DNA from: a phage
DNA length: 64,000 nt
Reading direction: 5' to 3' (one strand)
Sequence record: PZ445448.1
Part shown: positions 1,185 through 60,311 of the stretch, one piece after another
How the letters are laid out: each line of letters opens with the position of its first letter
Numbering within the stretch: the stretch's first letter is position 1
The notes under the pieces: generated by a model
The model's input: the letters and a program-made list of their open reading frames with translations, nothing else
Told to the model about the DNA's origin: nothing
Database searches by the model: none
Translations under genes and position numbers: made by a program

Positions 1185-3256
1185 TGGCAACAGCTGTTTT
1201 TAAACCTTACCGTGATTACTCTACAATGGCTGCACAGTTTCATTACCGAACAGTTCAGGATACTGCCGTTCCTGGTAGGGATTATAATCATGTTGAGGGC
1301 GATATAACTATCCCAGTTGGGGCAACAAGTATTGAGATCCCCGTGGAAATTGTTGACAAATTACCCAACAGGTTGCCAAGAAGCTTCTTTATGGAGTTTT
1401 CATCAAAATCCCAAGGGGTAATGATTGGAACACAAAGGGCGAAATGTACAATAGTTTCAGATGAGAATCTTGACAGGATATCTTGGGATACTGTTGAGGA
1501 GAGAATGTTTCACCCAAGGTATTGGGTTACAACTACTCAGCAGACTGAAAGTACCTGTATTGTTGCAGATAACAACTGTTGTATTAACCGTTTAGTGTCA
1601 AGAACATATGGAGGTATGGCTGGGTGTATTTGGGAAACAGTTGACAAGTATGACCATTTCGGCATTGGGTTTGATGATCACTATGAGATGAGAAACACCA
1701 AGCTCTGGTTCAGAATGTCAATAACCAACGCCAGCAACTTCTCCACTCCTGAAAAGATGATTATGACTGTAGACCTTGTTGATGGCACAATCATCTATGT
1801 TCCTTTAGCTCAATATGCTGTCAGCATCTCAGAGGATAAGAATGTTGCAGAAATTCATATTGATTTTGAGGACTGCGTCGGGATGGACCAGAACAACAAC
1901 ATGATGGGTGTTGATCCTCGGCAGGTGAGAAGGATTTTAATACCACTCATGCCTAAAGACTGGGTAAGTAATAGCACAGACCCGAGAACGGAAAATGTAG
2001 AGTGTGAGTTGCGCCTAGATCTGCTTCAGCCAGACACAGGCTGGAAAATGATGCAACTTAACAATATTCAGGTTAAAGAGCACGACGTTGGGATCTGCAC
2101 CGCATATGACGATATGTGGAACGTATCTCCTTTAAGGGTGTTGAACAATATCAAGCGTCTGGGCTATACCGGAACCATAAACCATTATGTTGGTATGAGT
2201 CATTATTATGACTACACATGGTCAGGAACCCAATGGTCTATAAACAGAACAGGGGCGCTAAACGCTGCAGCTTATAAATGGCATGATGATTTTATGTACA
2301 ATGCCAAACGACATAACTTCGACGTTATGCAATCTGTAAGTTTTGAGCTTTTCAGCGATGCCTGCCCGTTGGAATGGACCCAAAGAGACTGGAACGATAA
2401 CTACGCTAAAACAGGGTATACACCCTGTAGCTACCTCCTGTCTCCAACCATTGAAGAGGGTATGAATTTCCTTACTGCAGTATTTAAGAATTTTGCATCA
2501 GCCGCTATGAGAAACAACCTGCCAGTGATTATGCAGGTTGGTGAACCGTGGTGGTGGTACAATACCGATACTCGTAGACCTTGTATTTATGATTACCCTA
2601 CAAAACAGGCGTTTTATGATGAGACAGGCGAGTATGCATTAGATATTGGGACTATTGACGATCCTAAAACTGGCGGTGTTTACGATAAGTATGTAGCATT
2701 TTGTCGTGGTAAGCTTGGCGCTCGTATTGCGGCTATTTCAAAGGCAATAAAGGCACACGCTGCATCAGCTCAGATGACAGCTCTGCTGTTTTTCCCAACC
2801 ATTATGGAAACCGAGCTTACGCAAAAGCTTAACCTTGCTGACCAATATAAAAAGGAAGCAGGTGCTCTTGATTTCTTCTGCACCGAGTGCTACGATTGGG
2901 TGATGCAGGGAGGTATTGAAAAGGCAAAAGAGTCTGTAAACATACCTATCGTTAAGTTAGGTTGGCAACCGTCTGAAATACAATACCTTGCAGGGTTCGT
3001 TCCTAGTAAAGAGCTTGCTCCGGTATATGGTTACGACCCAACCAGGAATTACCAAGAATTTTTATGGAGATGTATTTGCGGAAACATGGCAACTATAGAG
3101 TATAGATATCCTGAGGTAAAACAGTATGTGTGGGCATACCCGCAAGTAATGTCTGACAGCATCACTGTTACCGCTAGAGATTCTACCGTGCTTCATATGG
3201 GGCAGGTTGCTCTGAAAGGGTATGTAGAAGATGTTGTCCCGCCAGACTTCTCATAA
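1184..3256 (+). CDS. hypothetical structural protein (690 aa)
   Basis: Long ORF, RBS GACAGGAGGG upstream; coupled to upstream gene; position in tail module. Confidence 0.5.
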   Translation: MATAVFKPYRDYSTMAAQFHYRTVQDTAVPGRDYNHVEGDITIPVGATSIEIPVEIVDKLPNRLPRSFFMEFSSKSQGVMIGTQRAKCTIVSDENLDRISWDTVEERMFHPRYWVTTTQQTESTCIVADNNCCINRLVSRTYGGMAGCIWETVDKYDHFGIGFDDHYEMRNTKLWFRMSITNASNFSTPEKMIMTVDLVDGTIIYVPLAQYAVSISEDKNVAEIHIDFEDCVGMDQNNNMMGVDPRQVRRILIPLMPKDWVSNSTDPRTENVECELRLDLLQPDTGWKMMQLNNIQVKEHDVGICTAYDDMWNVSPLRVLNNIKRLGYTGTINHYVGMSHYYDYTWSGTQWSINRTGALNAAAYKWHDDFMYNAKRHNFDVMQSVSFELFSDACPLEWTQRDWNDNYAKTGYTPCSYLLSPTIEEGMNFLTAVFKNFASAAMRNNLPVIMQVGEPWWWYNTDTRRPCIYDYPTKQAFYDETGEYALDIGTIDDPKTGGVYDKYVAFCRGKLGARIAAISKAIKAHAASAQMTALLFFPTIMETELTQKLNLADQYKKEAGALDFFCTECYDWVMQGGIEKAKESVNIPIVKLGWQPSEIQYLAGFVPSKELAPVYGYDPTRNYQEFLWRCICGNMATIEYRYPEVKQYVWAYPQVMSDSITVTARDSTVLHMGQVALKGYVEDVVPPDFS

Positions 3257-25066: not shown

Positions 25067-25567
25067 GTGAAAATTAAGATCTTTGCTATTATTTTGAGCG
25101 CATTTTTATCGCTGCCTGTTGTTGCAGCACCAAAACAAAAAGTATACCATACTTGCAAGCCATCAGATACTAAGGAAAACATTCTAGCATGCAATATCTA
25201 CAGGGAAGCTAGAGGGGATGGCACGATGGGTATGCTGGCATCTGGGTTTGCCACCCTAAACAGGAAATCTCACCCCAAATACCCAGACACCATAAGAAAG
25301 ATTGTCTACCAACCTAACCAGTTTTCGTGGACAAACCACGGCAAAACTTTTAAGGTGACAGAAAAAGATTCATGGGATCACGCTAAAAGTCTTGCAAAGA
25401 TGCTTCTAAAGGTCTATAATAACAACCATGTTGCATACATGGCTATGGACATAACAGGTGGAGCAACACACTACCATACAACCAAAGTACGACCGAAATG
25501 GGCAAAAAAGATGCAGAGGACAGCTCAATTCGGGAGTCATATCTACTACAAGGAGCGCAATAAATGA
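25067..25567 (+). CDS. secreted SleB-type cell wall hydrolase
   Basis: GTG start; N-terminal signal-peptide-like KIKIFAIILSAFLSLPVVAAP; motif YREARGDG...LNRKSHPKYPDTIRKIVYQPNQFSW typical of the SleB/CwlJ hydrolase family. Confidence 0.65.
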   Translation: MKIKIFAIILSAFLSLPVVAAPKQKVYHTCKPSDTKENILACNIYREARGDGTMGMLASGFATLNRKSHPKYPDTIRKIVYQPNQFSWTNHGKTFKVTEKDSWDHAKSLAKMLLKVYNNNHVAYMAMDITGGATHYHTTKVRPKWAKKMQRTAQFGSHIYYKERNK

Positions 25568-27556: not shown

Positions 27557-28762
27557 ATGATTTTCATCTACGAACATTTCAAAACCCGTAAAGAAGCACG
27601 AGACCGCCGTGCAGAACTTGAGAAGAAGGGTTTCACATGTGCCATTGAGAAAGGCGACACAACCTGGACACTGGCAGTTGGTGCCCCAGAGTTGTTCGAT
27701 CCTGACCGTGACAGCGTCTGCTACACCCGTGAGGATTTTGAAACCCGCGAAGAGGCCCGTTTATTTCGATACGGTCTGGAAGATAACGGTAAGTACGCTA
27801 TGATCTTAGATTTAGGCGAAGGTTCCGTTAAACGTTGGGGCGTGGTATACCCACTGTGTGTTGTTCACGGTGTGGGGTTCACTGGGGTAGCAATCAAGTC
27901 AGAAGAACCTTTAGTAGAAGTCAAAGATCCGGTGCTGGAGGTGGTGAGCAGTGTGTCTCAGCAACAGACTCGAAGCATCGAGCCTTTGGTAGTTATTTGT
28001 GGGGAACTCCTCCAGATCACCTGCAACGAAGGCATTTTTGAAATTCGCCGCAGCGAAAGTGAGGAAGTTTACCAGAAAGTCTTCGACCATATCTCTGTTC
28101 AGGAATATGATGAGGCAATTGGTGAAATCCTTGTCTGGCTGGAACGCAAGAATGAGTTCACCACACTTGCAGACAACCTGATCATGAAAGATGGTAAGCT
28201 CTACTACTACGGTGTAGAGATGCGATCCACCATTGCAAAGAAAATTGAGAAAGATTATGCAGACGGAACGCTGGATGACCGCTATGTGAAATTCCTCGTT
28301 CGCCTGCTACGCAATCCTTCTGCAAAATCTGTAAACATGCTCTACGATTTTATGCAGGCCAACGATATCCAGATTGCAGAAGATGGTCGAATCATTTGCT
28401 ACAAAGGGGTTCAGTTTAACGGCAGCAAGTGGGTAGATTGGCACAGTGGTAAAGTTCCACAATACCAGGGTGCTTTTGTATCCATGCCTCGTAACTTTGT
28501 AGAGGATGATCCGGAAGCTGCGTGCTCCTATGGCTTACACTGCGCCAGCAAAGAGTATGCAAAGAGCTACGGCACTGTAATGACTGTCATGGTTGACCCT
28601 GCAGATGTGGTTAGTGTGCCATACCAACACAATAGCGCCAAGTGCCGTGCATGCCGCTATGAGATTGTGGTAGCTCCGGAAGCACGCAAAGATGGAGACC
28701 CTATTGAATATGTAGTTGATCGTGACGGTAACACTATCGACATTCTTTACGAGGAGGCGTAA
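27557..28762 (+). CDS. hypothetical protein with N-terminal internal repeat (rIIB-like by position only)
   Basis: RBS AAGGAGACC; two repeats FKTRKEARDRRAELEKKG / FETREEARLFRYGLEDNG; directly after GHKL ATPase. Confidence 0.45.
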   Translation: MIFIYEHFKTRKEARDRRAELEKKGFTCAIEKGDTTWTLAVGAPELFDPDRDSVCYTREDFETREEARLFRYGLEDNGKYAMILDLGEGSVKRWGVVYPLCVVHGVGFTGVAIKSEEPLVEVKDPVLEVVSSVSQQQTRSIEPLVVICGELLQITCNEGIFEIRRSESEEVYQKVFDHISVQEYDEAIGEILVWLERKNEFTTLADNLIMKDGKLYYYGVEMRSTIAKKIEKDYADGTLDDRYVKFLVRLLRNPSAKSVNMLYDFMQANDIQIAEDGRIICYKGVQFNGSKWVDWHSGKVPQYQGAFVSMPRNFVEDDPEAACSYGLHCASKEYAKSYGTVMTVMVDPADVVSVPYQHNSAKCRACRYEIVVAPEARKDGDPIEYVVDRDGNTIDILYEEA

Positions 28763-30132
28763 TGGAAAAAGGGCAGTATGATGTAGGCACAGATGCTGCC
28801 CTCGTTGCAATCATGAGCGGTGAGAATGTCTTCGTTTCAGGACCTGCAGGTTGTGGGAAGACGTATCTCATCAACATGATCCAGTCGATGTATGGAGACT
28901 CTTGCATAACGGTTGCCCCGACAGGGGTAGCCGCTTTAAACGTTAATGGAGCAACAGCACACCGAACCTTCGATCTTGCAGCAGGTGTGAGCATGGAGTC
29001 AGACTGGACCGCAATAAGGGCAAAAACAGCAAAGCCTTTGAAAAGCAAGGCATTTACCATCCTAATTATCGATGAAATCTCTATGATCCGTGCTGATAAG
29101 TTTATAGAGATGGATAGGAAACTCCGCTTCCTTCGAAAAAATGACAAACCTTTCGGAGGCATACAGGTCATATTGTTTGGCGATTTTTACCAGGCACCTC
29201 CTGTTGTCTCTTCTATGGAGAAGGAAGCCTACTTCAACTTCTACCATACGGACCTGTGTTGCTATACCGAATCTTGGAAAGAGCTTGACCTCCACAACAT
29301 AGCCCTAATAGATCAGTTCCGACAGGAGTCTATTCGATTTGCTACAATGCTCAACTGTGTTCGTGAGGGTCGTCGCATAAAAGAGGTTGTAGCAGAACTT
29401 AATGCTCGCTGTTACAAAGGAGGTGTACCAACAGACGCTCTCACAATTTGCGCCACCAACAAACAAGCAGAGGAAGTGAACAGAAGGTTCTATGATGCCA
29501 TCAACGCCCCAGAGAAGGTATACACTGGTGAAATGAAGGGTAAGTTTCCCTCCACCCTGCCAGTTGAGCAGGAGATGAAGTTGAAAATTGGCATGAAAGT
29601 TATGATAACCGCCAACGATGTTGACCCGACGCACAAAGTACCTTATTATGTTAACGGAACACGTGCCACAATTGTTAAATTTAAGAACAAGGCGGTGGTG
29701 GTAGAGCTTGAAGATGGAACACAGGTTGACATAGAGCAGAGGTTGTGGGAGAATAACGAGTATAAGCCATCTCAGAGATACAACATTGCAGAAAGGAAGA
29801 TGGAGAAGTTTATAGAGAGGGTAGTGATTGGGTCATACAGGCAACTTCCTCTGAAATCTGGGTACGCCGTAACATCTCATAAAAGTCAAGGACTTACACT
29901 AGATTGTTACAACCTAGACCTTGGAAAGAACGGAGCTTTCTCTCCTGGGATGACGTATGTCGCTTTGAGTAGAGTTAAGACAATACAAGGAATAAACTTG
30001 TTGCGTCCACTAAGAGAAGTTGACATTATTGTTGACCCGCGAGTCGTAGAGTTTTACAATACAACATTCCCTGACTTAGACAAAATTGTCAGGAAAGATT
30101 TTGAAACCAGAGCAGAAGAGGGGGACGTATGA
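28762..30132 (+). CDS. Dda/RecD/Pif1-like SF1 DNA helicase
   Basis: Walker A VSGPAGCGKTYLIN; Walker B LIIDEISM; C-terminal VTSHKSQGLTLD and YVALSRVK motifs. Confidence 0.7.
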   Translation: MEKGQYDVGTDAALVAIMSGENVFVSGPAGCGKTYLINMIQSMYGDSCITVAPTGVAALNVNGATAHRTFDLAAGVSMESDWTAIRAKTAKPLKSKAFTILIIDEISMIRADKFIEMDRKLRFLRKNDKPFGGIQVILFGDFYQAPPVVSSMEKEAYFNFYHTDLCCYTESWKELDLHNIALIDQFRQESIRFATMLNCVREGRRIKEVVAELNARCYKGGVPTDALTICATNKQAEEVNRRFYDAINAPEKVYTGEMKGKFPSTLPVEQEMKLKIGMKVMITANDVDPTHKVPYYVNGTRATIVKFKNKAVVVELEDGTQVDIEQRLWENNEYKPSQRYNIAERKMEKFIERVVIGSYRQLPLKSGYAVTSHKSQGLTLDCYNLDLGKNGAFSPGMTYVALSRVKTIQGINLLRPLREVDIIVDPRVVEFYNTTFPDLDKIVRKDFETRAEEGDV

Positions 30133-31774: not shown

Positions 31775-32539
31775 TTGAAATTCATCTACAAAGAACACTA
31801 CCACAAAGGTGTTGTGTGGAGTCTATTTGACGGGTCTGGTGGTGCAGTTATTGACTGGGCAAAAGCTGGGTACCTGTGCCTGTGCTTTAATGCAGAAGGT
31901 GCTGACCACGGCAGTTATGCAGAGGTGATAACCGATCATCCTAACATTCACTATGTGGATTATTGGATTGACCCATGGTTCCCTCAGGAAACTTTTTGCA
32001 TGTATCCAGCTCCAGACTTTATTCTTGCATTTCCTCCGTGCACGCATTTAGCGGTATCAGGTGCTGCACATTTTAAGAAAAAGCTGGCTAAGGATCCTTT
32101 GATCCAAATTAATGCTGTAAAGGATGCTCGGGTTGCGGAAGAGTTGGGAGAGATTTACGATTGCCCGTGGCATGTAGAGAATCCTGTAGGGGTTATGTCC
32201 ACACTGTGGCGAAAACCTGATTACCGTTTTCATCCTTCGGATTATGGTGGGTATTTACCGGAGGATGATGTAAACCCCTGGTTTCCTGAATTTATAGCTC
32301 CACGTGATGCCTATCCAAAAATAACTTGCGGCTGGATAGGCAATGGATTTATAATCCCGGCCACAAAACCTGTCCCGCAAATAGTTGACGCGGTTAGCGG
32401 GTATTCCATGCAACACGCCAAGCTGGGTGGAAAGAGTGCAAGAACGAAGATGATCCGAAGCCTCACGCCACGTGGCTGGGCAAAAGCCGTATTCTTAGCA
32501 AACGAGCCTGTAGTAAGGAGCAGAATTAATGGGAAGTAA
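31775..32539 (+). CDS. putative DNA (cytosine-5)-methyltransferase, orphan
   Basis: TTG start after AGGAGACAGC; motif I-like LFDGSGG; PC-motif-like FPPCTHLAVSG; ENV-like HVENP; no adjacent nuclease. Confidence 0.5.
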   Translation: MKFIYKEHYHKGVVWSLFDGSGGAVIDWAKAGYLCLCFNAEGADHGSYAEVITDHPNIHYVDYWIDPWFPQETFCMYPAPDFILAFPPCTHLAVSGAAHFKKKLAKDPLIQINAVKDARVAEELGEIYDCPWHVENPVGVMSTLWRKPDYRFHPSDYGGYLPEDDVNPWFPEFIAPRDAYPKITCGWIGNGFIIPATKPVPQIVDAVSGYSMQHAKLGGKSARTKMIRSLTPRGWAKAVFLANEPVVRSRINGK

Positions 32540-34607
32540 ATTTATGGCATCTGCATACAACCGTTTCGGTGAGCCAAACCCGAAAGCAACTAAGTATAAA
32601 AGTGGGGGAAGTGTGAAACGAGACTATCGTGATGAAAAAGAGGTTGAAACTGTAGAGACTGTTTTAGAAAATACTAAAATTGTCCCTGTCCCACAACAAA
32701 ATATCGGTCTGATGGCTGCACAATATTTTGGTGTGCGATCAGCATTGTCACAAGAAGACGGTGTGACAGTCACTGCAACATATTTCCCATATTACGACCG
32801 CTACGGAAATCTGTCCGGTTTCAAAAAGCGTGACTGGACTATTCCTAAAGAACAAAGGGGCCACTTCTCCGTTGTTGGCATCGTAAAGGCCAACTCCCAG
32901 ATGTTTGGTCAAAAGCTGTGTGCATCTTCCAACAACCGTAAGCAGATTAACGTTTGTGAGGGAGAAGGTGATGTTATTGCAGCATGGCAGGCTGCATATC
33001 AGATACAAGTAAAAGGGATTCTCACCAACGCTAAAGCCCCGGCAAAGGTGAAGCAGTGGGCTAAAGAGGTCCAGGACGGGATCGACGCAGTTATCAACGG
33101 TGGTGATCTGGCAGGAAAACCCTGCCTGCCTTTTGTTGGAATTAACTGTGGATGTGCAAACGCAGTAGATACTTTTGCAAACAATGAGAAGTTTATCCGT
33201 AGCTATGGAACAGTTGTGCTGGCAATGGATAACGATGCAGCTAACGAGGTAGAGAAGCAAAAACACGTCATTAAAGGTGTTGAGGCCACGCACAATATCG
33301 CAGCATTTTTGATGGCTGATAACGTTTACCACGTAGAATACCCTGGTGAAGTAAATGACCCTGACGGGGTAAAAGATATCCGTGACATGCTGAAGGCTAA
33401 AAAGCTGGAAGATATTGTCAACATGTTCCGGCACCCTGTTAAATATGTGCCTGATGCTGTGTCGGATTTAGAAGACTTCTCTATCGAGTCTTTGCGGAAA
33501 AAGACTTCCAACGGGGTAGATATCAGCGCAGAGTTCCCAAAACTGCAAAAAATGCTAAAAGGCTTGCACAAAGGGACACTCGTAATGCTTACAGGGCCAT
33601 CAGGGGGCGGTAAAACAACTGTAGCTAAAAAACTGGAACATTGTATTGCAAGATACCTAATGGACCCGACATGCCCGAAGGCTGATGACTATGAAGAGGA
33701 TGATCGTCTATGTATGATCCATCTTGAGGAGGACCCAGAGGAAGCAATTAACTCCTTGTATGCAAACCAGTTAGGGTTTGATGTTAAAGAGTTTGTTGAA
33801 GATCCTAGCCAGTTTTTAACTGATCAAGAACACGCAGAGATTCACCAATCATGGGCAAAAGCTGGAAAAATCAAAGTGTTCAAACATTTCGGATCTATTC
33901 CGGTGGACGAGTTGATTACCAAGCTTAAGCAAATGGTTTGCCTGTACCATTGCCGTTATATTGTGCTGGATCACCTGTCCATGGTAATTTCAGGGCTTAA
34001 TGTTAAGGATGAGCGAAAAGAACTGGACATGGCTATGACTCAGCTGGCTGCGTTTTGTAAGCAGTTTAACGTGTTTATCTTGGTGATCGCTCACCTCAAA
34101 CGTACAGAGATTGTGCCTCCTAAGGACAAGGATGGTAACCCGTTACCTTTCTGGTATCCTGTGCGAAAAGAGAATTTGCGAGGATCGGCGGGGCTTGAAC
34201 AGTTGAGTTGGGTAGTCATAGGTGTCGAGGCCGAAGAAATGGTGGATCGTTCTCGTGGACGTGTCCGTCTGGTAGGTCTTAAAAACCGTCCAGCAAAAAC
34301 TCTAGGTATTGCTGACACTTTGGTTATGGACCCGCACACAGGTAAGTTCCATGATGCCAGTAATTGGTACTGGGACAAAGAAATGCAAATGTTTACAGAC
34401 GGAGAAGGTGGGGAGGTTGTTTGGAGACCTCAGGCTATGTTTGAGGATCAGGAGCATGCAGTTGTAGAAACACCTATGGGCAAGGTTGTGGCTGATAAGG
34501 TTGTAACTCCTACTGTTAAGCCTGTTGACACGCAGGAAGACCTCCAGTACGATGATCCATCCTCTGACCCGGTCCCTGGTTTTGAGGATGATGAAACGCC
34601 TTTTTAA
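32529..34607 (+). CDS. DNA primase-helicase (TOPRIM plus DnaB-like)
   Basis: TOPRIM-like CEGEGDVIAAW and MDNDAANE; Walker A LTGPSGGGKTTV; RecA-like region IVLDHLSMV. Confidence 0.7.
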   Translation: MGSKFMASAYNRFGEPNPKATKYKSGGSVKRDYRDEKEVETVETVLENTKIVPVPQQNIGLMAAQYFGVRSALSQEDGVTVTATYFPYYDRYGNLSGFKKRDWTIPKEQRGHFSVVGIVKANSQMFGQKLCASSNNRKQINVCEGEGDVIAAWQAAYQIQVKGILTNAKAPAKVKQWAKEVQDGIDAVINGGDLAGKPCLPFVGINCGCANAVDTFANNEKFIRSYGTVVLAMDNDAANEVEKQKHVIKGVEATHNIAAFLMADNVYHVEYPGEVNDPDGVKDIRDMLKAKKLEDIVNMFRHPVKYVPDAVSDLEDFSIESLRKKTSNGVDISAEFPKLQKMLKGLHKGTLVMLTGPSGGGKTTVAKKLEHCIARYLMDPTCPKADDYEEDDRLCMIHLEEDPEEAINSLYANQLGFDVKEFVEDPSQFLTDQEHAEIHQSWAKAGKIKVFKHFGSIPVDELITKLKQMVCLYHCRYIVLDHLSMVISGLNVKDERKELDMAMTQLAAFCKQFNVFILVIAHLKRTEIVPPKDKDGNPLPFWYPVRKENLRGSAGLEQLSWVVIGVEAEEMVDRSRGRVRLVGLKNRPAKTLGIADTLVMDPHTGKFHDASNWYWDKEMQMFTDGEGGEVVWRPQAMFEDQEHAVVETPMGKVVADKVVTPTVKPVDTQEDLQYDDPSSDPVPGFEDDETPF

Positions 34608-34669: not shown

Positions 34670-37036
34670 ATGAGTATGTGGAATTTTGACTTTGAGGCCT
34701 CAGGTCTTCTGGACGAGGAAGATCTTTACTACCATTGTGGCCTGTTTAAAGAGTTGAATAAAAATAATTTTATGTTGTTTTTGCCTATCAATGATAGATC
34801 TCATTACAGTGAAGAGGAGGTTGAAAAAGCAAAACAATTTATGCTGGCAAAGCAAGATATCTATCCTAGCTGCTCTGTCCGTATTGCGGATTTCAGCCAG
34901 CTTGAATGGTGGTTAACCGGGAACTCCGATTGGTCACCCACATCATTAAGTTGTCACAACTGTTTTAGTTATGACTTTATCTTGATGGAGAAGCTGTCTG
35001 GTATTCATTTTGATATGTTCCGTGATCCCAAGTGTATGGGGACAATCAATAATCATCAGGTGAACCTGTTCGACACTCTGCCAATGAGTCGTATACTATG
35101 GCCCGACAGACCGTTACCTAAAGGATGCCCTGATTCTGTATACAATCCTGTTACAAAACGTATGCAGCAGGTAGGTCCTCATGGCCTAATGGCGTGGGGG
35201 TACGCTTTAGGAAACCAGAAGGTTAAAATTGATGACTGGAGAAATTTACCTCTGTGGAAGTATGTTGATCGTGTATTCGAGGACGTTATCATCCAGGAGC
35301 TGCTCTGGAAAGAGCTGGTAGCGGAATCAAAAGGTGTATTCTACGGCAAATCTGACATGCAGAACTTTATGTACGATCCAGCCAAAGAGAAGCCGAAAGG
35401 GTTCAAGAAGATTACCTGGAAGAATGCATTACGCCGAGGCATGCTGCAGCATTTCCTGATGGAGCTGCAGGCTCGACAGGGTGTGTATTTCGACATAGAT
35501 GGGGCTATTGCTTTACGTGACCGCTGCGATGCGTGGATGAAAGAGATCGCTGATCGTGTTGAACCACAACTTCCTTTAAAAGAGTTATCAATGTCTCAGC
35601 GGCCTAAGTTCCCTGAAAAGCCGTTTAACCAGGATGGGACAATCTCCAATAATGGTTGGAAATGGTTAAAAGACAAGCTTGGCTACCCTGTGGACATGAG
35701 TGCTTTAGAATTCAAAGCTCCTCCTAAGCGAGCATTTACCTCCACAGGAGATGTCAGTAAGATGGGGATAAAATGGTGTGAAGAGATGGGCTGTAAAGAC
35801 CCTGATAAGATGGCGGATTTCTTGAGGGGCTATATCAAGGGCACCTCCACACCACAACCTTTACCTAAAGAGCTAATGGATCAGGCAATAAGTGATCTAC
35901 AGCAGAAGCGAATGCCTGACTGCAAGATACCTATGAAAATCAGCAATCAGGACGATATTAAGCGATACCTGATCAGTGCTGGTTGGCTTCCGACAATGTG
36001 GAGAACTAAGGATGTAACTAAAGACAGCAAGAAGAAAGCTCTACCTGATGCAGATGTTGATGCACGAGTGTATGCATATATGGACGAGCTTTTAGAGTCA
36101 GAGTATTGTGACCTAATTATCAACTTCTGGAACAAAACTGATGCTAAGTTCCAGACAACCGTGCACAAGTTCCGAAGCTTTCCTAACTCCGAAAGGATTA
36201 AAAAGGAAGTATTCGGGAAAATACGTAGAAAAGCTAGGGCACTTATTACTTCTCCGCAACTGAAAGATACGTTTGGACACCTATGCCCGAATCTTGAAAA
36301 ATTGAACGGAGAGATGGCTAAAGATATCGTCTTGTGGTTATCATTGCGAAACCGCAGATCGGTCCTTGATCCAATCAAGGAGGATAAGGTTGATACTGGT
36401 CTTCTTAATCACCCACGTTTGAAGATTGACCATAAGCTTCCTGCTAAAAGTTCTGGATTAACAAACACTTCCCGACAGAAACATAGTATTTGTGCAAACA
36501 TGCCTAAACCATCTCCTAAAGTGGTTATGGGTAAAGAGATGCGTAGTCTGTGGGGTGTTCCTCCAGGATACTTTGAGATCGGTATTGACGGGTCCAACTT
36601 AGAGCAGCTTATCGGGGCTTGGGGTGCCTTTGAGTTCGACAACGGCCTGTATTACGATGTTGTAAGTAACGGGGACGCACACCAAAACAATGCTGAGGCA
36701 TATACAAAAGTAGCAGGTAGAGAGGTGTCTCGTAACGACGGTAAACCTATCACGTATGGGGTTATGTATGGGGCACAAAAAGATAAAGTTGCAGATATGC
36801 TGGACATCTCTCCAGAGTTGGGACAAAGGGTAATCGATGCACTCTGGGATGCCAACCCTGGTCTTAAGGGGCGTAAAGAAGATCTGGAGAAATTCTGGGA
36901 AGCAACGGGTAAGAAGTTTATCTACTCTTTTGATGGTCATGCTATCTGGACCCGATCTAAACACTCTTTACTTAATGCATACCAACAAAATGGCGGCGCA
37001 TCGTTGTGTGACTTAGTTGGGATACTCATGCACCAT
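34670..37036 (+). CDS. family A DNA polymerase, exon 1
   Basis: Exo I FDFEASGL, motif A IGIDGSNLEQL, motif B RNDGKPITYGVMYGAQ; ORF runs 21 codons into the intron to a stop at 37097-37099; exon end at U37036 inferred. Confidence 0.65.
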
Positions 37037-37935
37037 CAAATGGTGAAGCGTGGGTGGTACGATGAAGGTGTTCGTCGTATTATCTATTACCATAAATAAC
37101 ATTGTGGCTTCGTGCAGTGATGCACGTCGAAAACCTCTTTAATTGACGGGAAGGCTAAGTTGACTTTTACACCTAAACATGGTAAAAGCTCAATATGCTA
37201 ATCCGCAGCGAAGACTAAAGGGGTGTAGTTAAAATGGCTAGATCAGTTGAGTATCACGGATATACCGTGTTTGATGATGGAACAATACCTTTATCGAAAC
37301 GTGATCATACAACAATGTTTTGTTTTGATAATGGTCGAGGTTACCTTTGCGTAACCATGTTCATCGAGGGGAAGCAGTGCACAAAAGGTGTCCACCACTT
37401 GGTTGCTGAATGCTTTGTATCAAACCCTGATCCTGAAAGGCTCACATGGGTGAACCATAAGGACGGAAACAAATACAACAATGCATACTGGAACCTTGAA
37501 TGGACCACCCCTGGTGGAAATATCAAACACGCTTATGATAATGACCTCAGAGTAAGGCCAGTCGGTGAGTATAATGCCAACGCTGTACTGACCGAGGATG
37601 AGGTAACGGAGATTTGCGAACTGTTACAAAGTGGTTTACGACAATGCGAGATTAGGGATCTTGGGTATCCTTATGAGACGGTCAGAGCCATAAAGCAAAG
37701 AAGACAGTGGAAACATATCTCTAAAAACTACACCTGGTAGTAACGTTCAGAGACTATCGAAAGCATAGCGCCAACATAAATTGGTGCGAAGAAGCGAGTA
37801 GAGTAGACCAGCAAGTGCGGTCGAAATGGGAGGTGCCTTGGTAACAAGGTAGTGAGATAGTCCGATCCATACAGGAAACTGTATGGCTGTGCACGTAATG
37901 GTGCGGGGTAGCTTAACGACCTACCTGAACTATTG
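37037..37935 (+). mobile_element. group I intron carrying an HNH homing endonuclease ORF
   Basis: Candidate P1: exon ACCAU with intron GUGGU (37054-37058), U.G at the splice site; P7-like GACUAUC (37753) / GAUAGUC (37846); terminal G at 37935; splicing restores HDE and keeps frame. Confidence 0.55.
37234..37740 (+). CDS. HNH homing endonuclease (intron-encoded)
   Basis: HHLVAECF...WVNHKDGNKYNNAYWNLEW matches HNH_3-type signature; C-terminal helix-turn-helix-like segment. Confidence 0.65.
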   Translation: MARSVEYHGYTVFDDGTIPLSKRDHTTMFCFDNGRGYLCVTMFIEGKQCTKGVHHLVAECFVSNPDPERLTWVNHKDGNKYNNAYWNLEWTTPGGNIKHAYDNDLRVRPVGEYNANAVLTEDEVTEICELLQSGLRQCEIRDLGYPYETVRAIKQRRQWKHISKNYTW

Positions 37936-45717: not shown

Positions 45718-45907
45718 GCTTAAATCTGCATGGAACATCGCTGTGGGGGACGAGATCCGTATCCCAGGTGGAAAGACCATTATGAAGATATCTCGTATTG
45801 AGTACGAAGGTGACCGTGTATTCCACATCTTCGCAGAAGATGGTCGAGAAATTTATATACAGGCAGGTTCTCACATTTATATCCGTAAGAAAGGGGACGA
45901 CAAATGA
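45710..45907 (+). CDS. hypothetical protein (65 aa)
   Basis: ATG 45710 after AAAGGAGGG; overlaps upstream gene end. Confidence 0.45.
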   Translation: MFKLKSAWNIAVGDEIRIPGGKTIMKISRIEYEGDRVFHIFAEDGREIYIQAGSHIYIRKKGDDK

Positions 45908-46233
45908 CAGAGATCATCATTTCAACTGCAGGGTATGTGTTCCTGACAATCATTGCACTGACTATTTTGGTGACAGTGTATGGGTTTGTTATCCTTCCTA
46001 TCCTTGAGACATTTAGTTTGTGTCGGTGTTGGAGAAAAGCTTACGGTCCACAACCATGGAAGGACTGGCCCCACCTGGTGCGCTTAGCGTTCTCTTATGC
46101 TTACGATCACTCCAGTAGTGCATGCATAACCGGATACCACGCCCACAACTGGAGCTGGGAAGGATTGAGGAAATGGAATGTTACAAAGACCATACCTCTA
46201 CGCATGTACAAACCTAAAAACAAAGACAGCTGA
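45904..46233 (+). CDS. hypothetical membrane protein (109 aa)
   Basis: ATGA-coupled; N-terminal hydrophobic helix IISTAGYVFLTIIALTILVTVYGFVILPIL. Confidence 0.5.
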   Translation: MTEIIISTAGYVFLTIIALTILVTVYGFVILPILETFSLCRCWRKAYGPQPWKDWPHLVRLAFSYAYDHSSSACITGYHAHNWSWEGLRKWNVTKTIPLRMYKPKNKDS

Positions 46234-46269
46234 TACTTGAAAATTCCTGGCATATCAAGTGTAAGGGGG

Positions 46270-46730
46270 ATTTCTAAAATGGATTTCCTCCTTTTGATAT
46301 TTCACCGGGCTGGATATTTTAAAATTCTTAGAAAATCAGAAAATGGATCGAAAACTAAAATGGATTTTTCAGAGTAGGCGCGACAAGCTGAATAACTCAT
46401 CCTATCGTTTGCACCATATTCCAGGCCACCATTATAGATTTCCCACACATGCTAACCTCCCTCTACTAGAACTTCCTCCACTTGCCCTTAACCTTCTATG
46501 GTAACAATCTAACCACTATCTTGAAGTTGCGGTGCAGCTTTCCAAGTACTCGATCTACTTTTCATTTCATGGCTTGGATTTTCTGAAAATTTTTCTCGAT
46601 AAATTTCTCAGTACTCGATCTGTTTTTCGTTTTCTGAATCGGATTTTCTGGAAATCGTTCCGGATCTCGACCTGAAATTTTTGGGGACGAAATCGATTTT
46701 TCGTTTTCAGAAATGGATTTTTAAAATTTC
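46270..46730. repeat. noncoding direct-repeat cluster (AAATGGATTTT / GGATTTTCTG units; GTACTCGATCT x2)
   Basis: At least six copies of the GGATTT-containing unit and a roughly 64 bp tandem duplication beginning AGTACTCGATCT; no ORF with RBS. Confidence 0.5.
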
Positions 46731-46869
46731 TATATGGGAATATTTTATGGGATACTGTTTTATAGGAAATTGTTACGGAGGGTAATTAGCATGCTAATTA
46801 AATTTATTAAATGCGAGGAGTTCTCATTTAGAATTTTGAATGATAATCATTCTCGTTTGCAGAATAACG

Positions 46870-46910
46870 GGCAGGCCCGGTGATTGTCTCCCCCGTCACC
46901 GGTGCCTGCC
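46870..46910. other. long GC-rich hairpin
   Basis: GGCAGGCCCGGTGA ... TCACCGGTGCCTGCC, about 14 bp stem with one bulge and an 11 nt loop. Confidence 0.45.
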
Positions 46911-46935
46911 GTCCTTTCGATAGGTATATTGTGCC

Positions 46936-47074
46936 ACCTGGCGGGGCCGCTGTCAACACTTTTCAAAAAATTTTTCTAACCTGATGCGCTAACCGCTGCA
47001 ACCTGGCGGGGCCAGCCTGGCAGGACCTAACTGACCAGGTAGGAGAGAATGAAGGCTTGTAAACCTGGTGGGCC
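46936..47074. repeat. three ACCTGG(C/T)GGGGCC iterons at 62-65 bp spacing
   Basis: Copies at 46936, 47001, 47063; a further degenerate copy near 47239. Confidence 0.5.
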
Positions 47075-47374
47075 TATGCTATAGGACAGGTAACAATTGA
47101 AGAGGAGGTACAAAAATGAAAGGTAATGTGATCCCCTGGAAAATGTAGCTATTAATGACGCTGAGGCTATCGCCCTGGTTGAAAAGGCCATGGCGGGAGC
47201 GTTGGAACATAAAGAAGAGTACGAAAAAATGATGGTTAACCTGGTAGGGCGGCGGCAGGTGGATTCTATCATAAAAAATAATTTAAAATAATTGTTGACA
47301 ACCGGGGGAGTCCTGCTATTCTTACCCTACAAGGTGAACAACACCGCACTAACTAGTAAAGAGGATAAAAAATC

Positions 47375-47572
47375 ATGAACGCATACGGAATCAAAGTACG
47401 TCGCAACACTCGCCAGGTGGTCACCGATCAAGTGGTTTGCCTGGTGGATGTAACCATCAACAACGGGCAAGGCCTTTATAAATTTCGTCGCGGTCATAGC
47501 TATACCCTGCAACAGCTTAATCGTTGCGCCCTGACAAAAGGTCAGATCAATCACTGGTTTAATAAAAAATAA
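47375..47572 (+). CDS. small-gene block protein (65 aa), unknown function
   Basis: ATG after AAAGAGGATAAAAAATC; promoter-like TTGACA at 47295. Confidence 0.55.
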   Translation: MNAYGIKVRRNTRQVVTDQVVCLVDVTINNGQGLYKFRRGHSYTLQQLNRCALTKGQINHWFNKK

Positions 47573-47636: not shown

Positions 47637-48035
47637 ATGAAAACCACAACCTTTAATTTTGACAATGCCGACTTCTCTTTTTCTGATGTCAAGAACTGCC
47701 GCCGTGATCGTGGATTTTACAAGGCTTATAATCTGGTTGGCCTGGACGATGATAATAATTTGCACGAAGTAGCGGAGATCCGGTACTATGCCGCCGCCAG
47801 CGGTAACACTAACTACTGCGTTTTTTGGATACACGACAACAAGAACAATAAGTACGGTTATACTGGCGGCAAGGCGAGCGGTCACGGTTATGATAAAGCT
47901 AACGCAGCACTTGAGAGCGCATTAAATGCTATGGGGATCACTGCCAACGGCTGGATCTATGAAGAAGAGTTTTTGTCAGCACTTGCTGCCCACCTGGGGT
48001 ATAAAAAGCACATTGTGACATGCGCCCACGAATAA
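47637..48035 (+). CDS. small-gene block protein (132 aa), unknown function
   Basis: ATG after CTAAGAGGATAAAATC. Confidence 0.6.
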   Translation: MKTTTFNFDNADFSFSDVKNCRRDRGFYKAYNLVGLDDDNNLHEVAEIRYYAAASGNTNYCVFWIHDNKNNKYGYTGGKASGHGYDKANAALESALNAMGITANGWIYEEEFLSALAAHLGYKKHIVTCAHE

Positions 48036-53818: not shown

Positions 53819-54103
53819 ATGGCTATTGTTACCGCTGGCGATGTAGTAGAAATGGAAGCAAAATACTTAAAAGCGGGTATGCACATCCTACGGAATGATC
53901 AAGAGTTATTATTAACGATGGTTGACTATAATCACGGCCAGGATTATCCAAGCATCGACTACTTTTTTGAGTATGTTGATGAAGAGTTGAAAGAGGATGA
54001 GGCCTATTGCGGTGAGTTCTGCAACTTCTTTTGTCCTGATGAGGTTGTAAAGGTTATTTATCAACCTGGCGTAGCTTTCCCGCTGCACGCTATCAATAAA
54101 TAA
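53819..54103 (+). CDS. small-gene block protein (94 aa), unknown function
   Basis: ATG after ATAGGAGTTAAAATC; leader hairpin GGGGG-agg-CCCCC; TTGCAT-17-ATAATA promoter-like at 53728. Confidence 0.6.
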   Translation: MAIVTAGDVVEMEAKYLKAGMHILRNDQELLLTMVDYNHGQDYPSIDYFFEYVDEELKEDEAYCGEFCNFFCPDEVVKVIYQPGVAFPLHAINK

Positions 54104-54158
54104 ACCTGGCGGGGCCGAAAAGGCCCCCAATTATGAAAATAAAGAGAGGCAAATCATC

Positions 54159-57830: not shown

Positions 57831-58435
57831 GTCTGCTCTTCCTCCTACCACAAACGGCCCAGCCTGGCAAGTGGAATAATTGACTAGCCATCAATCCCAC
57901 ACACTGTACAAATATACATGGAAAATAACTATTGCATAATTTTTCATTGTGTGGTAGCAGGTCCATTTTTACCCGTTTTCTCTCTCAAAATTGCACGTAA
58001 TGCCGCTATTGCACAAAATTTAACCTGATGCACATCTTCAATATCTTGTCAACAACTAAAAATCTTTATAAGTCATACACTTACACACTCACAAAAGCGT
58101 GTTCTACGTGAAAAATCGAGTATAACTATAGCCGCCAGATCTCAGAATTTACGTACGCTCACCATTCTATAGTCTGCTAAGTATTTATTCCAACCATGGA
58201 ATAACGGAATAGTCAATACCTGCATAAAATAATTATTCGTGTAAACTGCATAACATAAATCAGCTCAGGTGTCAACATTTTTCGTAAACAGTCCGAAATT
58301 GTCACGGTGAGTTATCATAAACAGAGAAATATTTAGTCGTCTAATGTTTACTGTACATTACTATACTGACTGGAATCATTAGATGACTAAGAGAAAGATA
58401 AGAAATAATTAACAATACAATTATTTTATCTGTAA

Positions 58436-58815: not shown

Positions 58816-59377
58816 CATGAAATAATAACAGTCGTTATTGTGTCGAAAGTGTATAAGGTGTCATAGTATGTCAGACAAGTTTTTCTCCTCTTTGTCAAGT
58901 GCTGCATGAAAAATTTACAAGCTTGTATGGTAGCATTTTTGCTGCCCTGTTTACATTCAGTTGTGTATGTATAACCCTTGTTGTGTGGGCGTTTAGACGT
59001 CTAGACGGTTGGAAGTCCGCAGGTTAATATCTAATCTATTGGCTGCTAACTATATCCCACACAAATAGTAAGAAATATAATTGTTATGTGCGTAAACAGT
59101 AACTCATGTTATCAATCCCTGTATGTATCGCCAGTGGTGCGCATAATGGGTATTATGTTAAATTGCCCGTAATGATAACTATTCTCACAATGATAGGTAT
59201 TCTCATTCACTCCCACAAGATAGGTTGCAAATGTTGTGCCACTGTGTGAACGGCCTCACCTATTAATTTGCCTCACTGCCTCGATATTTGAGAATTGTTA
59301 TAAGAATGAGAAGTATTCCCATTTCGTCCGCCTGGCAGCACTCCAGTCGCTACCGCTCATGACAGGGCAGAACTAGA

Positions 59378-59620: not shown

Positions 59621-60311
59621 CAGACAGGGGAAATATGGAGGATGTAGTTGGGGGAGTTGATCAAACAGGTAGAGTATGGAATATGTTACAAGTATGTTAA
59701 ATATGGAGGGTGGATATCTGTAGGATTTATGTGTAAAATCAAAGACTTAAGTGGTGTTGTGGTATTTTCTATAAATAATTCAAGTTTAATAGGTAATATT
59801 TGTCTCTATCCGCTTTGTGTGGTAAACAAATTCAGATGGTGTTGGTTTACAAGTGTATACATAATATACAAATTAAAGATACAAGAAACCCCCCTCCCCC
59901 TTCGGCTACCATTCACCTTTTCCTCTGACTGGTACTTAAACACTTATTCAGACTCTTCAGGTTATCACCCATATATCATATGGCAGTGACTGGTGTCCTC
60001 CGGCCCCTCTTTCGTCACCCGTCCGCTTCGCCATGCTAATGCCATAGCCAATGGTTCGGTTGTTCACCCTGTTCACTCAGGTGTATCTCCATACCCCTTC
60101 AAACCGAAGAGAACAGAAAACCCGAATTACTCGGTAAAAGAAAAGAGAAGAACTTAATTTTATCAGGATAGGCAAGAATGTCAAGGCATGACTGCTCACT
60201 AAACAAGCAAACAGTCATGTGTGGGAGGTAAGTGATTGTGGTGGTAGGAAATTTAGTTGAAAGATGTGTTATAGGTGCTCCCAGCACTTTAGCCGGGTAG
60301 CTAATTGTGTG

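Follow-up and report, generated by a model that had tools for sequence, protein, structure and literature searches.

A Vequintavirus noncoding gap as a candidate terminator zone and Fur-gated control module

Introduction

What does the kilobase of repeat-rich DNA at positions 46234-47370 of phage record PZ445448.1 do, lying as it does between a block of replication genes and a block of small genes? A sequence-only reading of the 64,000-nucleotide (nt) stretch analysed here (the window) had described this region as about 1.1 kb without a supported open reading frame (ORF), and had taken its evenly spaced repeats to suggest an array of protein-binding sites, as at a replication origin, a packaging site or a genome terminus. 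Over 1.6 kb around the gap, 121 phage records match at 80-97% identity, all of them rV5-like myoviruses, and by sequence the window is a Vequintavirus, that is, an rV5-like Escherichia coli phage with a genome of about 136 kb. Our main comparison was an alignment of ten vequintaviruses, consisting of this window and nine relatives. We propose, with a probability of roughly one half, that the gap joins a terminator zone to a Fur-gated promoter and noncoding-RNA control module, set between an operon and early genes.

Results

Fur-type boxes in the right half of the gap

The proposed control module centres on short palindromes and on the promoter that one of them overlaps.

46810-46828, no strand assigned: degenerate Fur-like box 0 (AATGCGAGGAGTTCTCATT), from the sequence read and cross-genus comparison
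46839-46857, no strand assigned: Fur-box-like palindrome 1 (AATGATAATCATTCTCGTT), from consensus score, E. coli matches and cross-genus conservation
46836-46865, plus strand: weak candidate promoter TTGAAT-18-CAGAAT, overlapped by box 1, with a layout conserved in all genera

Box 1 can be read in both forms by which a Fur box is recognized in sequence, the 19-bp consensus and the 7-1-7 inverted repeat. It agrees with the consensus GATAATGATAATCATTATC at 15 of 19 positions, tied for the best score in the window, and box 2 of the relatives reaches 16/19; on the 7-1-7 pattern, the window's box 1 has two mismatches, and relatives reading ...TCTCA have one. Its best matches in the E. coli genome were the yhhX-yhhY intergenic region (22/23) and the mntH promoter (19/19). 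The fetched yhhX-yhhY sequence holds the RyhB sequence beside the match, and its feature table lists no RNA gene there; as ryhB of E. coli K-12 lies between these two genes, we take the match to be the ryhB operator. Over 19-22 nt, the phage box and the ryhB and mntH operators have the same sequence.

In a distant search, conservation outside the genus was confined to a core of about 60-90 nt (46836-46891). This core is a 9-1-9 palindrome, AATGAkAAT-C-ATTCTCATT, in two to three tandem copies about 29 bp apart. It was found in Seunavirus (PVP-SE1, GAP31, LNA4), Mydovirus (Mydo, VIK251) and Certrevirus (PcCB7V, F4M1E), in Erwinia phage Hena1, Serratia phage ChuuTotoro, Av-05 and TH18, in the Phapecoctavirus-like ESCO13, anhysbys and 05F01, in Aeromonas phage 2L372X, and in metagenomic contigs. 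Where the window has the degenerate box 0, other genera have a good one (GAATGAGAAGCATTCTCATT in GAP31, LNA4 and VIK251). Tandem boxes, two or three per phage, occur in phages of Escherichia, Salmonella, Klebsiella, Proteus, Cronobacter, Erwinia, Pectobacterium, Serratia, Enterobacter and Aeromonas, and such uniformity over ten host genera agrees with a host factor of invariant specificity.

Within the window, the box family has 5 matches against 0.05 expected, and sites scoring at least 14/19 on the Fur consensus number 12 against 2.7 expected, with the early block enriched. Early small-gene-block sites at 14-15/19 lie at 47745, 53548, 55768 and 55972. The suggested array of protein-binding sites holds up, in the form of Fur-box-like palindromes and not of the ACCTGG iterons to which it had been attributed. 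Judged by these matches, the protein that binds the boxes is most likely host Fur-Fe2+.

The resemblance to the ryhB and mntH operators extends from the near-identical sequence to the 7-1-7 or 9-1-9 palindrome, and, as in classic Fur-repressed promoters, the tandem phage boxes overlap the -35 element and the spacer. The phage box differs from those operators in belonging to a virulent phage and in facing strong convergent promoters; moreover, the promoter that it overlaps has a poor -10 element, and extra boxes lie in the terminal repeat of the genome.

Promoters facing the boxes and the ACCTGG repeats

To the right of the boxes, the gap holds ACCTGG repeats interleaved with promoter elements.

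46928-46956, minus strand: P(-)2, a strong sigma-70-type promoter, TTGACA-17-(TG)CACAAT, from the promoter scan; leftward, toward the Fur box
47001-47013, plus strand: iteron 2 (ACCTGGCGGGGCC), with a -35-like CTGCAA before it and no -10
47057-47085, plus strand: weak promoter-like TTGTAA-17-TATAGG that contains iteron 3 and precedes the small gene described below
47295-47322, plus strand: first strong early promoter, TTGACA-16-TATTCT, serving the gene at 47375-47572 that starts the small-gene block

The three iterons of the sequence-only reading exist as ACCTGGCGGGGCC at 46936 and 47001 and ACCTGGTGGGCC at 47063, with the spacings of 65 and 62 bp that lie in the range it gave; the third copy is one G short of the motif. 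Together with a one-mismatch copy at 47239, an inverted copy at 46068 and a distant copy at 54104, the motif has 6 matches in the window against 0.49 expected. The distant copy, which had been placed at 54097, forms half of the hairpin GGGGCCgaaaaGGCCCC (54100-54130), right after a stop codon.

The first copy (46936-46948) is the 17-nt spacer of P(-)2, beside which lies an A/T-rich, UP-like block (46960-46982). In ECML-10, PVP-SE1, anhysbys and F4M1E, our scan found a matching minus-strand promoter at the equivalent position, its GC-rich spacer being likewise of the form CCWGG...GGCC, and the aligned relatives carry a second minus-strand promoter one unit further left, deleted in the window. 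A -35-like hexamer precedes each plus-strand copy (TTGTGC, CTGCAA and TTGTAA), and a -10-like TATAGG occurs at copy 3 only; copy 2 resembles a promoter unit that has decayed. The most fitting interpretation of the repeats is as spacers within promoter units, about 64 bp long, that have been duplicated, and not as initiator sites.

As origin sites, the ACCTGG repeats do not hold up. Copy number varies among close relatives (a 46-nt deletion has removed copy 3 from S127 and Mangalyan), copy 1 is a promoter spacer, copy 4 (47239) lies inside the coding frame of the small gene at 47116-47291, and no initiator-like gene is adjacent. Like the iteron origins of lambda (ori) and of pSC101 and R6K, the region has direct repeats near an A/T-rich segment; it differs from them in having repeats of 12-13 nt set 62-65 bp apart, in the varying number of these repeats, in the one that is a promoter spacer and in the lack of an adjacent initiator gene.

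The early promoter at 47295-47322 has a counterpart annotated as sigma-70 in ECML-10, and the promoter scan placed a near-consensus sigma-70-type promoter before each of the downstream small genes.

A 134-bp deletion inside the GC-rich hairpin

Between the boxes and P(-)2, the window differs from every relative inspected.

46870-46910, no strand assigned: GC-rich hairpin, left behind by a 134-bp deletion that joined two GGTGrTTGTCTCCC direct repeats, from folding and alignment

The GC-rich hairpin reported from the sequence is present, with 14 pairs and one bulge (DNA fold -16.9 kcal/mol, z = -4.4), and its compact form is the product of a deletion: by alignment with relatives, 134 bp are missing from the window exactly inside it. 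At this site, all nine of the other aligned vequintaviruses have two tandem units, as do all 115 database records with a match to the junction. Each unit of the relatives consists of a Fur-like box, then ...CCCGGTGrTTGTCTCCC..., then an inward-facing promoter. The deletion fused the two GGTGrTTGTCTCCC repeats and so joined inverted-repeat arms that stand 146 nt apart in relatives, where they bracket the second Fur box and the second minus-strand promoter. Considered as an intrinsic terminator, the hairpin has a strong stem, followed only by the tails GUCCUUUCG (plus strand) and CGUUAUUCU (minus strand), and the compact form belongs to the deletion variant only. The GC-rich module had no match in the E. 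coli chromosome.

A C-rich stretch and repeats in the left half

The left half of the gap consists of two conserved blocks separated by a variable spacer, and ends in a palindrome.

46234-46372, plus strand: block A, A/T-rich and conserved, directly 3' of the stop codon of ORF 45904-46233
46373-46545, plus strand: variable C-rich, G-poor spacer, a rut-like (Rho-loading) candidate, from composition and alignment
46536-46745, plus strand: block B, a tandem array of three units (each about 65-74 bp), from repeat families and the relatives' alignment
46783-46800, no strand assigned: 18-bp perfect palindrome TAATTAGCATGCTAATTA, from the sequence read

The most C-rich, G-poor stretch of the 64-kb window is 46379-46536, and the 78-nt window at 46439 has the highest plus-strand C/G ratio anywhere in it (5.2 with a +1 correction; about 30 C and 5 G). 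It has the composition by which a Rho-type terminator is recognized in sequence, about 80 nt, untranslated and unstructured, with C exceeding G, 3' of a stop codon. Among relatives, 46373-46545 diverges to 64% identity and keeps its composition (46-52 C and 19-23 G per 161 nt). In the plus sense, the top 1% of such C-over-G "bubbles" in the window comprises the gap stretch, 25239-25348, 57836-58113 and 59840-59986, and other genera have comparable bubbles 100-250 nt past the upstream gene. The C-rich stretch looks like a Rho loading site. It shares with Rho-dependent terminators an untranslated C-rich, G-poor run of about 150 nt directly after the last gene of an operon, and a conservation of composition rather than of sequence; it differs in being G-rich on the other strand, where it could serve R-loop formation. 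The largest comparable bubble in the plus sense, 57836-58113, directly follows the final gene of the small-gene block and could be a further terminator of the Rho type.

The expectation of at least six GGATTTT-type units was borne out: GGATTT occurs six times on the plus strand (46268, 46281, 46362, 46576, 46641 and 46715), four of them as exact GGATTTT. These four fall within 360 bp of the gap, compared with 18 in 128 kb counting both strands, so that the motif is very dense locally and not enriched over the window as a whole (13 expected). The units belong to a 16-mer family, TTTCWRAAWYGGATTT, with members in block A at 46271-46286 and 46352-46367. We dropped readings of the GGATTT repeats as DnaA, IHF, Fis or CsrA-type sites, which by eye had no consensus matches.

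The tandem duplication of about 64 bp was likewise found, as copies of the AGTACTCGATCT unit at 46545 and 46610 (65 bp apart, 76% identity over 62 nt); 74 bp further along comes a third copy, which is degenerate. The three units of block B (46536-46582, 46601-46647 and 46675-46721) contain GGATTTT, CTCGATC and phased A/T tracts, whose period-11 signal is the strongest in the whole window and suggests bent DNA. Blocks A (over 46240-46372) and B (over 46545-46745) are nearly invariant in the ten vequintaviruses, and the word GATCTCGACC of block B is common even to Aeromonas phage 2L372X. In the last ~50 nt of the metagenome contig OCMD01000840.1, from a vequintavirus-like phage, ...AACGGGCAGG is followed by the reverse complement of block B (AAACGAAAAACAGATC); this junction at a contig end is either a rearrangement or an assembly chimera.

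The perfect palindrome TAATTAGCATGCTAATTA exists, at 46783-46800 rather than at the 46787-46804 first given. It is imperfect in 6 of 9 relatives (five with a C variant, EdH4 with a G variant) and is therefore probably not critical. Conservation of the gap across the ten vequintaviruses is not above that of the flanking genes. An impression of hyperconservation, gained from 100% identity in three phages, was dropped on this flank-level conservation, 46373-46545 being the most variable part.

RNA and coding potential

Searches with Rfam at permissive thresholds, covering the window and three relatives, gave nothing relevant, ARAGORN found no transfer RNA or transfer-messenger RNA, and the units of the vequintaviruses had no significant fold. 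In the relatives outside Vequintavirus, a highly conserved second module stands about 150 nt to the right of the first, which follows directly on the boxes, and ends in two plus-strand hairpins. These hairpins covary: 93% of cells pair, compared with 39-46% with slid partners, and in four pairs both partners have changed (A-U 7 and G-C 7, for instance). One invariant G.U pair is valid on the plus strand only, since its complement is a C.A mismatch. A T-rich tail (TTTCCTCTTC) follows the hairpins, and our scan lists a plus-strand terminator there in PVP-SE1 and anhysbys. It is plausible that in these phages a rightward RNA of about 230 nt runs from the Fur boxes, opposing the RNAs of two strong leftward promoters.

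The module that follows the Fur box in PVP-SE1-type phages (PVP-SE1 sequence, about 2545-2585) has TTGTCTCGCGAT and, after an interval of 7 nt, ACCC(C)TCGC in common with the promoter-leader junction and first stem-loop of ryhB, whose counterpart lies at 1470-1500 of the E. coli E2348/69 sequence; the likeness could be chance or a trace of host capture.

Protein coding in the conserved modules was rejected, as indels in the loops would break the reading frame, their lengths not being divisible by three. Other genera have, immediately to the right of the conserved module, a small minus-strand ORF (2794-2976 in PVP-SE1, 2814-3080 in record L006, 1768-1962 in record L028, and others) belonging to four unrelated PHROGs of unknown function; its position suggests a swap-in slot, and vequintaviruses have none.

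The gap and its flanking genes

Towards its right edge, the region described as noncoding contains a gene, and the flanks show the transcription units that it separates.

47116-47291, plus strand: conserved small gene (60 aa in MaxTheCat, bas57_0100), frameshifted here, from the relatives' alignment
28762-30132, plus strand: PIF1-type helicase, upstream of the gap
32529-34607, plus strand: DnaB-like helicase, upstream of the gap
34670-37099, plus strand: family A DNA polymerase, upstream of the gap

The absence of a supported ORF holds for 46234-47115, which leaves a true noncoding gap of about 0.9 kb; beyond it, 47116-47291 is a conserved gene encoding 56-61 aa in relatives. Its frameshift here comes from a C run that reads CCCC and not CCCCC, which puts the start out of frame. 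As 3 of 9 relatives share the C4 run, it may be that the start is misannotated or that the run is slippery. ORFs called inside the gap by some annotators are broken by indels in relatives, such as a 1-nt indel at 46365.

Between the polymerase gene and the gap, small genes, including one for a macro-domain protein, follow on the plus strand, and the small-gene block extends from 47375 to about 57800, running from the gap toward the genome end. Strand composition of the gap is inverted relative to the flanking DNA, and GC skew has no origin-type inflection apart from transcription direction. Sixteen or seventeen records labelled "Campylobacter phage" (MG0656xx) are nearly identical to E. coli vequintaviruses over the gap region, and their host labels are doubtful.

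The genome end and its boxes

Direct terminal repeats of 458-459 bp have been published for the vequintaviruses Gotham (PMC7471380) and EdH4 and HdK5 (PMC6563267). The EdH4 record carries an identical 459 bp at both ends, which maps by homology to 58874-59332 of the window and places the gap about 12 kb inside the genome; the suggestion that the gap is a terminus or packaging site accordingly failed. The mapped repeat sits in a gene-free zone of about 2.3 kb (57.8-60.1 kb) on which transcription converges. In a transposon survey of the related phage Bas54, the sole insertion-free gap singled out was the 2-kb terminus region.

The box-family search linked the two places.

59173-59187 (TGATAACTATTCTCA), 59189-59207 and 59305-59323, no strand assigned: three Fur-like boxes in the 459-bp terminal repeat

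The last of these is 9 nt from the physical end, and the boxes are kept in EdH4, at its positions 10 and 126. Outside the box, the similarity by which paralogy of gap and terminus was judged was not significant (score 26, null 23 +/- 2.3), and common 9-mers were only mildly enriched. The Fur-type boxes themselves are a real sequence link from the gap to the genome end.

Discussion

The arrangement described here would make the gap a boundary and control region between a long rightward replication operon and small early genes that run to the genome end. In the left half (46234-46800), untranslated plus-strand RNA from the upstream operon would reach the rut-like Rho loading site, after which the phased T-rich repeats could provide bent DNA and sites of pausing or release. 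The two transcription units are probably insulated from each other by this half. The right half (46800-47115) would be a compact control module, in which one to three Fur-type palindromes overlap a weak rightward promoter and are faced by strong sigma-70-type promoters, one here and two in all relatives. The rightward and leftward promoters would converge, with some 70-190 nt of GC-rich noncoding sequence between them. If Fur-Fe2+ occupied the boxes, the rightward transcript, and the fate of the leftward transcripts through roadblock or antisense pairing, would follow the iron status of the host. What the sequences show are the box and promoter consensus matches, the conservation across genera, the deletion and the place of the terminus; Fur binding, transcription from the promoters, Rho action and any RNA function are inferred from them.

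Several observations weigh against this proposal. The rightward promoter matches the consensus at 8 of 12 positions and was missed by the promoter scan. The first module has no significant conserved fold on either strand (RNAalifold -0.7 and -0.5 kcal/mol), and, with single-sequence z-scores near 0, a structured RNA there is not supported. The second module has a shorter counterpart in vequintaviruses, without a clean plus-strand terminator. In the left arm of the hairpin, 6 of 9 relatives have CC for GG without compensation, so the long helix of the arms is under no visible selection; both strands also fold equally well, and a long-range RNA helix is not supported. The promoter role leaves the box copies in the terminal repeat unexplained, and the A/T-rich palindromes could instead bind a phage protein. 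Finally, a literature search on Vequintavirus origins, Fur boxes of lytic phages, small RNAs and transcriptomes returned nothing on this locus, nor on transcripts, binding or Rho in phages of this group.

The main rival explanation is a transcription-primed replication origin, in which a leftward G-rich RNA would persist as an R-loop on the C-rich template and prime synthesis in the A/T-rich blocks B and A, with the GGATTT 16-mers or the 65-bp units binding an initiator or a host architectural protein. Phages offer precedents in the primary origin of T7 and in oriF and oriG of T4, where, as here, promoters fire into an A/T-rich noncoding segment; the gap differs in its host sigma-70-type promoters, its roughly 600 bp of repeats and the interposed Fur boxes. 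About 0.9 kb of conserved noncoding DNA (46234-47115) with direct repeats and phased A/T tracts, promoters that point into it across genera, and the inverted strand composition would all suit an origin. So would the outcome of the rV5 genome paper (PMC3606486), which reported a noncoding box and whose authors searched for an origin and were unable to place it. However, no initiator gene adjoins the gap, and those for helicase, primase and polymerase are found 9-17 kb upstream of it; the Bas54 survey singled out the terminus alone, natural deletions of 134 and 46 bp are tolerated, the skew turns only with transcription, and the C-rich stretch diverges freely in sequence. We therefore regard an origin as unlikely.

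The boxes in the terminal repeat raise a different question, whether a phage-encoded DNA-binding protein links the gap to the genome end, for example in end recognition, packaging, genome organisation or a staged DNA entry as at the injection-stop region of T5. The box family occurs three times in the 459-bp repeat, and the gap bounds a 12-kb end-proximal block of small genes (about 9% of the genome) that is transcribed toward the end. This block resembles the first-step-transfer segment of T5, which a repeat-rich noncoding region likewise closes off from the rest of the genome behind the end-proximal early genes; two-step DNA entry is, however, not known in rV5-like phages. Against a phage protein, the boxes are nearly identical to proven host Fur operators and unchanged across ten host genera, whereas the operators of phage regulators usually co-vary with the regulator, and gap and terminus resemble each other in the box alone. 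On balance, a phage protein seems to us quite improbable. Least credible, and in our view very nearly dismissed by the position of the repeat, is the idea that the gap is itself a terminus, a pac site or a cos site. It is repeat-rich and noncoding, and public records of some relatives begin near the conserved core (PQ002170 at position 69, for instance), but vequintaviruses have defined terminal repeats that map elsewhere, and the start points of other genomes' records are arbitrary or assembly overlaps.

The proposed Fur-gated control module and terminator zone are made of components of known kinds, namely a Fur operator, sigma-70-type promoters and a Rho-type terminator; what is new is how these are combined, along with the conservation of the arrangement among virulent phages and its echo in the terminal repeat. 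For annotation, the ORFs that many records place in the gap are spurious, and the gap region is not the genome end. More tentatively, and with doubt outweighing confidence, an entire lineage of large virulent phages of enterobacteria, comprising Vequintavirinae, Stephanstirmvirinae and an Aeromonas phage, may carry a host-Fur-controlled noncoding RNA switch, in which a rightward RNA induced by iron starvation is set against constitutive leftward RNAs; a ryhB promoter and leader captured from the host may have been the ancestor of this switch. As phage DNA replicates, the extra Fur sites of the terminal repeat would multiply with it, and they could titrate Fur, relieving the repression of iron uptake in the host.

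If Fur binds these boxes, phages in wide use for therapy and biocontrol (rV5, PVP-SE1, phi92-like phages and Phapecoctavirus relatives) would sense the iron status of their host as infection begins, a behaviour of which we found no account in the searchable literature. The gut and infected tissue are normally iron-limited, and such sensing could therefore affect phage efficacy in vivo. A virulent-phage member would then join the Fur regulon, giving a testable handle on a conserved kilobase of genomic dark matter.

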